A stretch of 37,653 nt of DNA from a virus (taxonomy: Duplodnaviria > Heunggongvirae > Uroviricota > Caudoviricetes): the IMG/VR virus record IMGVR_UViG_2778261231_000003; one strand, written 5' to 3'. Each line of letters starts with the position of its first letter. Position 1 is the stretch's first letter. The notes beneath the pieces were generated by a model. That model was not told the DNA's origin. It searched no databases and saw only the letters and a list, made by a program, of their open reading frames with translations. Shown here piece by piece: positions 5,226 to 5,993 of the stretch. A program made the position numbers and the translations under genes.

Positions 5226-5263
5226 GCAGCACGATCTTCTTGCATACGACGTGCTACGGTTTC
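5226..5263 (+). repeat. Direct repeat copy 2, between the GIY-YIG stop and the invertase stop
   Basis: GCAGCACGATCTTCTTGCATACGACGTGCTACGGTTTC; internal inverted repeat AGCACG...CGTGCT. Overlaps the invertase stop codon (5262-5264) by 2 nt. Confidence 0.6.
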
Positions 5264-5816
5264 ATTTATCTCCGACCGGAAACTTCTTATACAGTGTCGA
5301 TATACCAACATCATAGATGATCGCCACCTTCTGGCGAGGAACGCCTGATGCAATTAATCGCCCGGCCTGCGCCCATTGTTCTGGTGTAAGTTTGGGACGA
5401 CGTCCCCCAATTCGTCCCTGTGCGCGAGCAGCTTCCAGTCCAGCTTTTGTTCGTTCAACAATCAGTTCTCGTTCCATTTCAGCCAGGGCACCCATCACAT
5501 GAAAGAAAAAACGCCCCATCGGTGTGCTGGTATCAATAGCATCCGTCAGGCTGCGAAAATTAACGCCACGTTCGCGCAACTCCTCAACCAGAATGACCAG
5601 ATGCCGCATACTACGCCCCAGCCGATCCAGCTTCCAGACAACCAGAGTGTCACCTGCCGATAATGTCCTGAGCAGTTTTTTCAGTCCCGGCCTTTCGGAC
5701 TTTGTACCGCTTATCTTGTCTTCAAAAATCAGCTCGCATCCTGCACAGTTCAGCGCATTACGTTGTAGATCTGTGTTCTGGTCATTTGTTGACACACGTA
5801 CATAGCCAATAAGCAT
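5262..5816 (-). CDS. Serine recombinase, DNA invertase of the Pin/Gin/Hin/Cin family
   Basis: N-terminus MLIGYVRVSTNDQNTDLQRNAL matches Pin/Gin invertases (from memory) and includes the catalytic serine; C-terminal HTH GVPRQKVAIIYDVGISTLYKK. GGGAGA Shine-Dalgarno upstream. Confidence 0.85.
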   Translation of the reverse strand: MLIGYVRVSTNDQNTDLQRNALNCAGCELIFEDKISGTKSERPGLKKLLRTLSAGDTLVVWKLDRLGRSMRHLVILVEELRERGVNFRSLTDAIDTSTPMGRFFFHVMGALAEMERELIVERTKAGLEAARAQGRIGGRRPKLTPEQWAQAGRLIASGVPRQKVAIIYDVGISTLYKKFPVGDK

Positions 5817-5993
5817 GGTAGATCTCCCTGACTGATTAGACTTGAGATAAATGACAGGGGATAAGTGAGATAATTATGGGAAGTACTGGGTCAACATGGG
5901 AAGAGACTGGATGGAATATGCAATAACCTTACAGTATGTGAAAATAAGACTGGCCCGAAAAAAACAGAACTCGCACCAGCCTGATTGCAGATA

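Follow-up and report, generated by a model that had tools for sequence, protein, structure and literature searches.

The stretch of DNA analyzed here (the window, 37,653 nucleotides of IMG/VR virus record IMGVR_UViG_2778261231_000003) raises the question of why an intact invertase gene, pin, should stand just outside the end of a Mu-like prophage with no invertible segment beside it. A preliminary description, drawn from the sequence itself, offered three readings, namely that the Mu-like phage had transposed into the fibre-switch region of another prophage, that the invertase acts on flanking repeats or on an adjoining GIY-YIG segment, or that it is an orphan. Our comparison with related Escherichia coli genomes strongly favors the first, and pin very probably looks orphaned because the Mu-like phage inserted between this gene and its P segment.

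The Invertase Gene and Its Product

The pin gene occupies positions 5262..5816 on the minus strand and encodes an intact PinE-type DNA invertase of 184 aa, in which a Pfam search identified a Resolvase domain (PF00239, E 9e-52) and an HTH_7 domain (PF02796, E 5e-13); no NCBIfam model was specific to Pin, every match falling under its cut-off. Mu Gin (PDB 3UJ3/4M6F) aligns with Pin end to end over residues 1–181 with 78% identity (E 1e-93), and the catalytic Ser9 is present in the YVRVST motif of Pin in the alignments with both Gin structures, of which 3UJ3 is the S9A mutant. These features bear out the assignment to the Pin/Gin family in the preliminary description, although the interval 5262–5993 that it gave to the invertase contains the gene only as far as 5816, positions 5817–5993 comprising the pin leader and then the left end of the phage.

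Size and domain layout fit the Fis/enhancer-dependent invertases, which consist of a resolvase domain and a C-terminal HTH_7 in about 185–195 aa. Residues Q151, R154, and L155 of Hin, together with basic residues at 47, 48, and 51, are conserved only in Fis/enhancer-dependent invertases (PMC3798978), and the translation of pin has the corresponding Fis/enhancer contact residues Q150, R153, and L154 at these invertase-specific positions as well as a basic helix B (K46/K47/R50). A crude pattern check located G-N13-C 15-mers within pin at nt 22–36 and 71–85, their centers 49 nt apart. At the DNA level, pin has 92% identity to K-12 pinE and 100% to the gene annotated as pinE by PGAP in strain CT02, and in the public assembly collection the exact 184-aa protein is listed in 2963 blocks. 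Judged by its sequence, pin encodes an unremarkable PinE-type invertase of the Fis/enhancer class that is widespread among E. coli prophages.

Crossover Sites in the Window

We scanned both strands of the whole window for the 26-bp palindromic crossover-site consensus TTCNNNNAAACCNNGGTTTNNNNGAA, allowing ≤3 mismatches, and obtained a single gix-like match at 37565–37590 on the plus strand (TTGTCAAAAACCTTGGTTTGGGGGAA), with 0.12 matches expected by chance; a real e14-type site and its half-site used as queries recovered no further site in the window. This sole Gin-family site bounds the Mu-like phage's own invertible segment on the left and is contained in the constant 5′ part of that phage's tail-fibre gene (37090..37653, plus strand), which runs past the window end and is the tail-fibre gene nearest to pin, its start being 31.3 kb away. 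The preliminary description was therefore right that the invertase has no invertible segment beside it and that the nearest tail-fibre gene lies ~31 kb off, and the search for 26-bp gix/hix-like sites that it recommended, here extended across the window, yielded no pair near pin. Likeness to the Gin/G segment of Mu (and to Cin of P1 and Hin of Salmonella) thus extends over the full length of the protein, but unlike gin, the pin gene of the window does not adjoin two inverted 26-bp sites, the lone site belonging to the other phage.

The window ends 63 bp inside the invertible segment of the Mu-like phage, and homology to relatives carrying other fibre cassettes stops at 37591–37599. An assembly broken by inversion heterogeneity or by repeated fibre cassettes would end in this way. 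The window may represent an entire draft contig, as short-read assemblies typically break at segments of this kind.

The Native pin Locus in Related Genomes

The native layout of the locus could be observed directly in 13 relatives (L001, L002, L004–L013, and L027). In every one of them, pin is preceded by a conserved sequence, ...TTCTCCCAAACCAACGTTTATGAAAA-TGCAGAAATAACGAGCAAATGGCATCATTCCTGCTTTT-GTCAGGGAGATCTACC-ATG, that contains a 26-bp Gin-family crossover site of the TTCTCCCAAACCAA type, located 67–80 nt upstream of the pin ATG. Its inverted counterpart was found 1.5–1.9 kb away in eight of ten loci encoding the exact protein and also in L001 (half-site scan, 2 mismatches); the proximal site alone was recovered in L005 and L009, and the distal site alone in L002, where the 2-mismatch scan missed the proximal one. 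The paired sites enclose opposed genes for a tail-fibre C-terminus and tail-fibre assembly, with ymfQ and Mu-type baseplate genes beyond, and each of the ten listed loci with the exact 184-aa Pin has next to it tail-fibre cassette genes and Mu-type baseplate genes, or what remains of them. The L005 locus is degraded and has an IS1 within its invertible segment.

The layout of these relatives is that of the right arm of the e14 family (stf/tfa, ymfQ, Mu-type baseplate genes, pin, and defence cargo), of which the window holds only the side with pin and cargo. The inverted repeats of the e14 P segment have been quoted as TTGGTTTGGGAGAAGG (PMC12529663), and the crossover sites of the relatives have this same sequence, containing TTGGTTTGGGAGAA. 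The relatives also share the opposed stf/tfa cassettes of the PinE/P segment in the K-12 cryptic prophage e14. The locus of the window differs from e14 in three respects: the cargo downstream of pin is PD-T4-3 rather than mcrA, the remnant lies beside CP4-6/thrW rather than icd, and a 34-kb phage probably separates pin from the P segment.

Strain CT02, one of the 13, provides the best empty-site reference. It shares with the window the CP4-6 genes ykfI and yafW on the left and the GIY-YIG gene, and has a pin gene and leader that are 100% identical, and then the invertible segment directly. Because the same gene has a proximal crossover site in the relatives, and in most of them an inverted partner as well, the missing site pair in the window reflects an insertion and not a property of the protein. 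The comparison with a strain lacking the prophage, which the preliminary description had also proposed, accordingly places an identical pin directly beside an invertible segment.

The Inserted Mu-Like Phage

The element next to pin is a Mu-like prophage of the BcepMu style with divergent early and late genes (5833..37653), about 31.8 of its about 34.3 kb falling in the window and its right end being predicted near coordinate 40135, ~2.5 kb past the window. Three complete copies in other genomes (L003, L025, and L026, that is, AW1.7, MSB1_9D, and HH107) measure 34302–34376 bp, the AW1.7 copy 34,303 bp. All three are flanked by 6-bp target duplications (GTAGCT, GCAGGT, and GACAAT), compared with the 5-bp duplication of Mu. 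The termini are invariant (TGAT...ATCA, of the TG...CA type), and the subterminal motifs GATAAATG and GTGAGATAA are inverted at the two ends at equal distances from each tip. The right end reads ...GCGGCGCATCA, and the AW1.7 copy, which interrupts adiA, begins TGATTAGACTTGAG and ends GCGCGGCGCATCA.

A leftward early operon encodes a DDE transposase, a MuB-like ATPase, GemA, and Mor, and the late genes run rightward. The last gene of the early operon, mor (5994..6383, minus strand; Pfam Mor E 1e-42, annotated as Mor in AW1.7), is transcribed toward pin. At its far end, the phage carries its own tail-fibre gene, a 1.8-kb segment between inverted crossover sites, and its own invertase of 193 aa, which has only 67% identity to the Pin of the window. 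Escherichia phage Phi06_2974 B and Klebsiella phage KP12 have 96–99% DNA identity to the phage of the window, and Escherichia phage PhiKM is also related. We identify the inserted element as a Mu-like transposable phage with Phi06_2974 B and KP12 as near relatives, and with the gene set, TG...CA ends, and many insertion sites of BcepMu-type and Mu-like phages, it has nothing unusual about it.

Mobility of this phage is directly apparent from its presence at more than ten unrelated sites, including adiA, pgaA, csgC, several other chromosomal genes, and two other prophages. The copies inside prophages (L017 and L022) interrupt a P2-like prophage in its tail-fibre region and a lambdoid one in its tape-measure gene, so a landing within a prophage is not unique to the window.

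The Left Junction

The breakpoint between the two elements was read directly, to the nucleotide. Positions 3900–6500 used as a query matched more than 4000 E. coli genomes, each good match ending at 5828–5832, and none of 5426 complete genomes spans the junction. In a three-way alignment, the window equals CT02 as far as ...GATCTCCCTGAC (CCCTGAC, ending at 5832) and the left end of the AW1.7 phage from TGATTAG (5833) onward. On the pin side, the leader at 5817..5832 (minus strand), with its Shine-Dalgarno sequence AGGGAG, is identical to that of CT02 and other relatives, and its outermost six positions, CCTGAC (5827–5832), are the predicted left copy of a target duplication whose 6-bp length is taken from the three complete insertions. 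On the phage side, the terminus at 5833..5993 (TGATTAGACTTGAGATAAATG...) is 100% identical to the copies in adiA, pgaA, and csgC, and from 5833 on the sequence matches, with 100% identity, a prophage that about two dozen E. coli genomes carry, AW1.7 among them. The phage end is 16 nt from the pin start codon, in agreement with the earlier placement of the invertase just outside the prophage end. An origin of this junction by Pin-mediated recombination at a crossover site can be ruled out, as the break lies ~39 bp from the site and exactly at the phage terminus, which argues for transposition.

Probable Separation of pin from Its P Segment

The most probable history begins beside the CP4-6/thrW island, with an e14-family prophage remnant in whose right arm a crossover site would have stood 67–80 nt upstream of pin as in the relatives. 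The 34.3-kb Mu-like phage would then have transposed into the 54-bp spacer between the pin ATG and this proximal site, entering at 5832/5833, with 16 nt left between the break and the ATG on one side and about 39 bp between the break and the crossover site on the other. The Shine-Dalgarno sequence would have stayed with pin, and the crossover site, the P segment, and any promoter would have moved more than 34 kb away, past the right end of the window. We infer that the P segment persists just past the right end of the phage, behind the second copy of the CCTGAC duplication. If the copy in the window follows the three complete ones, its right junction should read ...CATCA-CCTGAC-AAAAGCAGG..., or in longer form ...GCGCGGCGCATCA/CCTGAC/AAAAGCAGGAATGATGCCATTTGC...TTTTCATAAACGTTGGTTTGGGAGAA, the sequence after CCTGAC being AAAAGCAGGAATGATGCC and then the P segment. 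Exact patterns of the left junction and of this predicted right junction had no match in collections of viral genomes, species-representative genomes, and metagenomes, and exact-protein look-ups (Pin and the phage tail protein I, each with 10-kb flanks) returned other contexts only.

The suggestion in the preliminary description that the Mu-like phage had transposed into another prophage's fibre-switch region is thus substantiated by a break at the phage terminus and by relatives in which the segment lies ~40 bp beyond it. Its term orphan describes the local layout and not the cause, the insertion having separated pin from its segment. The same description held that a conventional invertible segment found adjacent once the prophage is removed would reduce the case to an insertion artefact; CT02 and other relatives have precisely this arrangement, the right junction of the source genome being outside the window. 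By that standard, the case comes down to an ordinary insertion artefact of already known elements.

A small residual uncertainty is confined to what lies beyond the right junction, and most of it concerns a more complex rearrangement in place of a simple insertion. The P segment could have been deleted or carried far away, for example by intramolecular replicative transposition with adjacent deletion or inversion or by later recombination among the four Gin-type sites, leaving pin a true orphan in the source strain. Such an outcome would be compatible with a window that stops 63 bp inside the phage's invertible segment, before the right junction is reached, and degraded pin loci do exist elsewhere, as in L005 with its IS1. 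We consider it unlikely, given that the left junction falls cleanly on a phage terminus, at a position other than a crossover site, and that the three complete phage copies elsewhere are all simple insertions with 6-bp target duplications. Replicative events of Mu, moreover, belong to lytic growth, which cells normally do not survive.

The GIY-YIG Gene and the Left Flank

The preliminary description also considered that the invertase acts locally, on the flanking repeats or the GIY-YIG segment. The GIY-YIG nuclease gene (4428..5201, plus strand) encodes the PD-T4-3 anti-phage defence system (PADLOC E 2.4e-140, residues 1–256 of 257; Pfam LEM-3_GIY-YIG), lies beside pin in convergent orientation both in the window and in each of the 13 relatives, and sits where e14 has mcrA. 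It is bracketed by a hairpin-forming repeat of ~36 nt, one copy at 4203..4238 and the other at 5228..5262, directly 3′ of the pin stop codon, an arrangement that could suggest a local segment inverted by Pin. These repeats are direct, however, and not inverted, and they do not resemble the 26-bp crossover site; an inverted-repeat search of 3900–6100 produced only short pairs at chance level. In addition, a flipped allele of the GIY-YIG gene was seen neither in the window nor in any of the 13 relatives, and PD-T4-3 is a free-standing, single-gene defence system. Inversion of the GIY-YIG segment by Pin is therefore highly improbable, and this part of the earlier interpretation is abandoned.

The contexts of the relatives diverge at the outer repeat copy (about 4217–4230) or near 4043–4052, so that the repeat looks like the boundary of a cargo module. 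An Rfam search of positions 1–7000 matched the hairpin repeat to CssrB below threshold, at 24.5 bits where the gathering score is 76, and this candidate was rejected.

Farther to the left, three minus-strand cargo genes (1223–3954) precede PD-T4-3. The first encodes a protein of 295 aa with a DnaJ-type zinc-finger region, a weak match to REase_MTES_1575, and a partial PADLOC match to PDC-M01B, the second a short tyrosine recombinase of about 200–218 aa, and the third a restriction endonuclease of the Mrr_cat type (303 aa). Together they look like a defence hot-spot; no complete known defence system was recognized among them. A 47-nt 3′ fragment of a tRNA gene, which looks like thrW, is present at 872–918 on the minus strand (reverse complement AATTCGTAATGCGAAGGTCGTAGGTTCGACTCCTATTATCGGCACCA), between a CbtA/YkfI toxin gene (86–490) and the defence/prophage module, which is homologous to other strains from 854–879 onward. 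ARAGORN called no tRNA in the window. The fragment probably marks tandem islands as the remnant of an att site.

That Pin might be the Mu-like phage's own equivalent of gin, as its position next to the prophage and its relationship to Gin could imply, has a negligible probability, as the junction alignment places pin outside the phage terminus at 5833 and copies of the phage elsewhere have no pin at their left end and the 193-aa invertase at their right end.

Possible Consequences of the Insertion

Separation of pin from its segment by the phage need not mean that the invertase is without a substrate. Action in trans is a property of Gin-family invertases. PinQ and PinR of the cryptic prophages Qin and Rac are invertases without a local segment whose trans action is on the P segment of e14 (PMC12529663), the inversion of the P segment by PinQ, which is 38% identical to PinE (PMC12529663), serving as a precedent for trans action. 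PinQ differs from the case at hand in being a distant paralogue, the separation of pin in the window being a recent insertion and not an old orphan state. The sites of the phage and those of the e14 type share the inner half-site TTCTCCCAAACC, and given this and the precedent, Pin, if expressed, could flip the segment that belongs to the phage as well as the displaced P segment. The phage's invertase could likewise flip both.

Expression itself might depend on the phage. The pin gene is co-oriented with mor and lies 161 bp downstream of it, so prophage induction could drive Pin synthesis by read-through. Promoter-like matches on the minus strand of the phage end (5942–5915 and 5902–5873) agree weakly with the consensus, and a promoter scan upstream of pin in the native locus gave no match. 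The predicted RNA fold of 5810–6000 (minus strand) is not more stable than that of shuffled sequences (z −0.47), and a hairpin with a U-rich tract follows mor. It is conceivable, though we regard it as doubtful, that the insertion rewired pin beyond displacing its segment, through read-through from the early operon and cross-reacting switches.

As biology, the separation of pin from its segment carries little weight; it offers a clean example of how one prophage landing inside another can make a normal invertase look orphaned. The case also explains why draft assemblies break at such invertible segments, and it advises caution in annotation, where an apparent orphan invertase is best compared with relatives whose site is empty. 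The predicted layout would bring two Gin-type switches next to each other, with four near-identical sites within about 5 kb. Should the insertion indeed have rewired pin, either invertase could flip both segments or recombine sites across the two elements, and fibre cassettes or the right end of the phage could be shuffled. Cross-reaction between the adjacent switches, if it occurs, would make the strain a natural setting in which to test the shuffling of cassettes between prophages.
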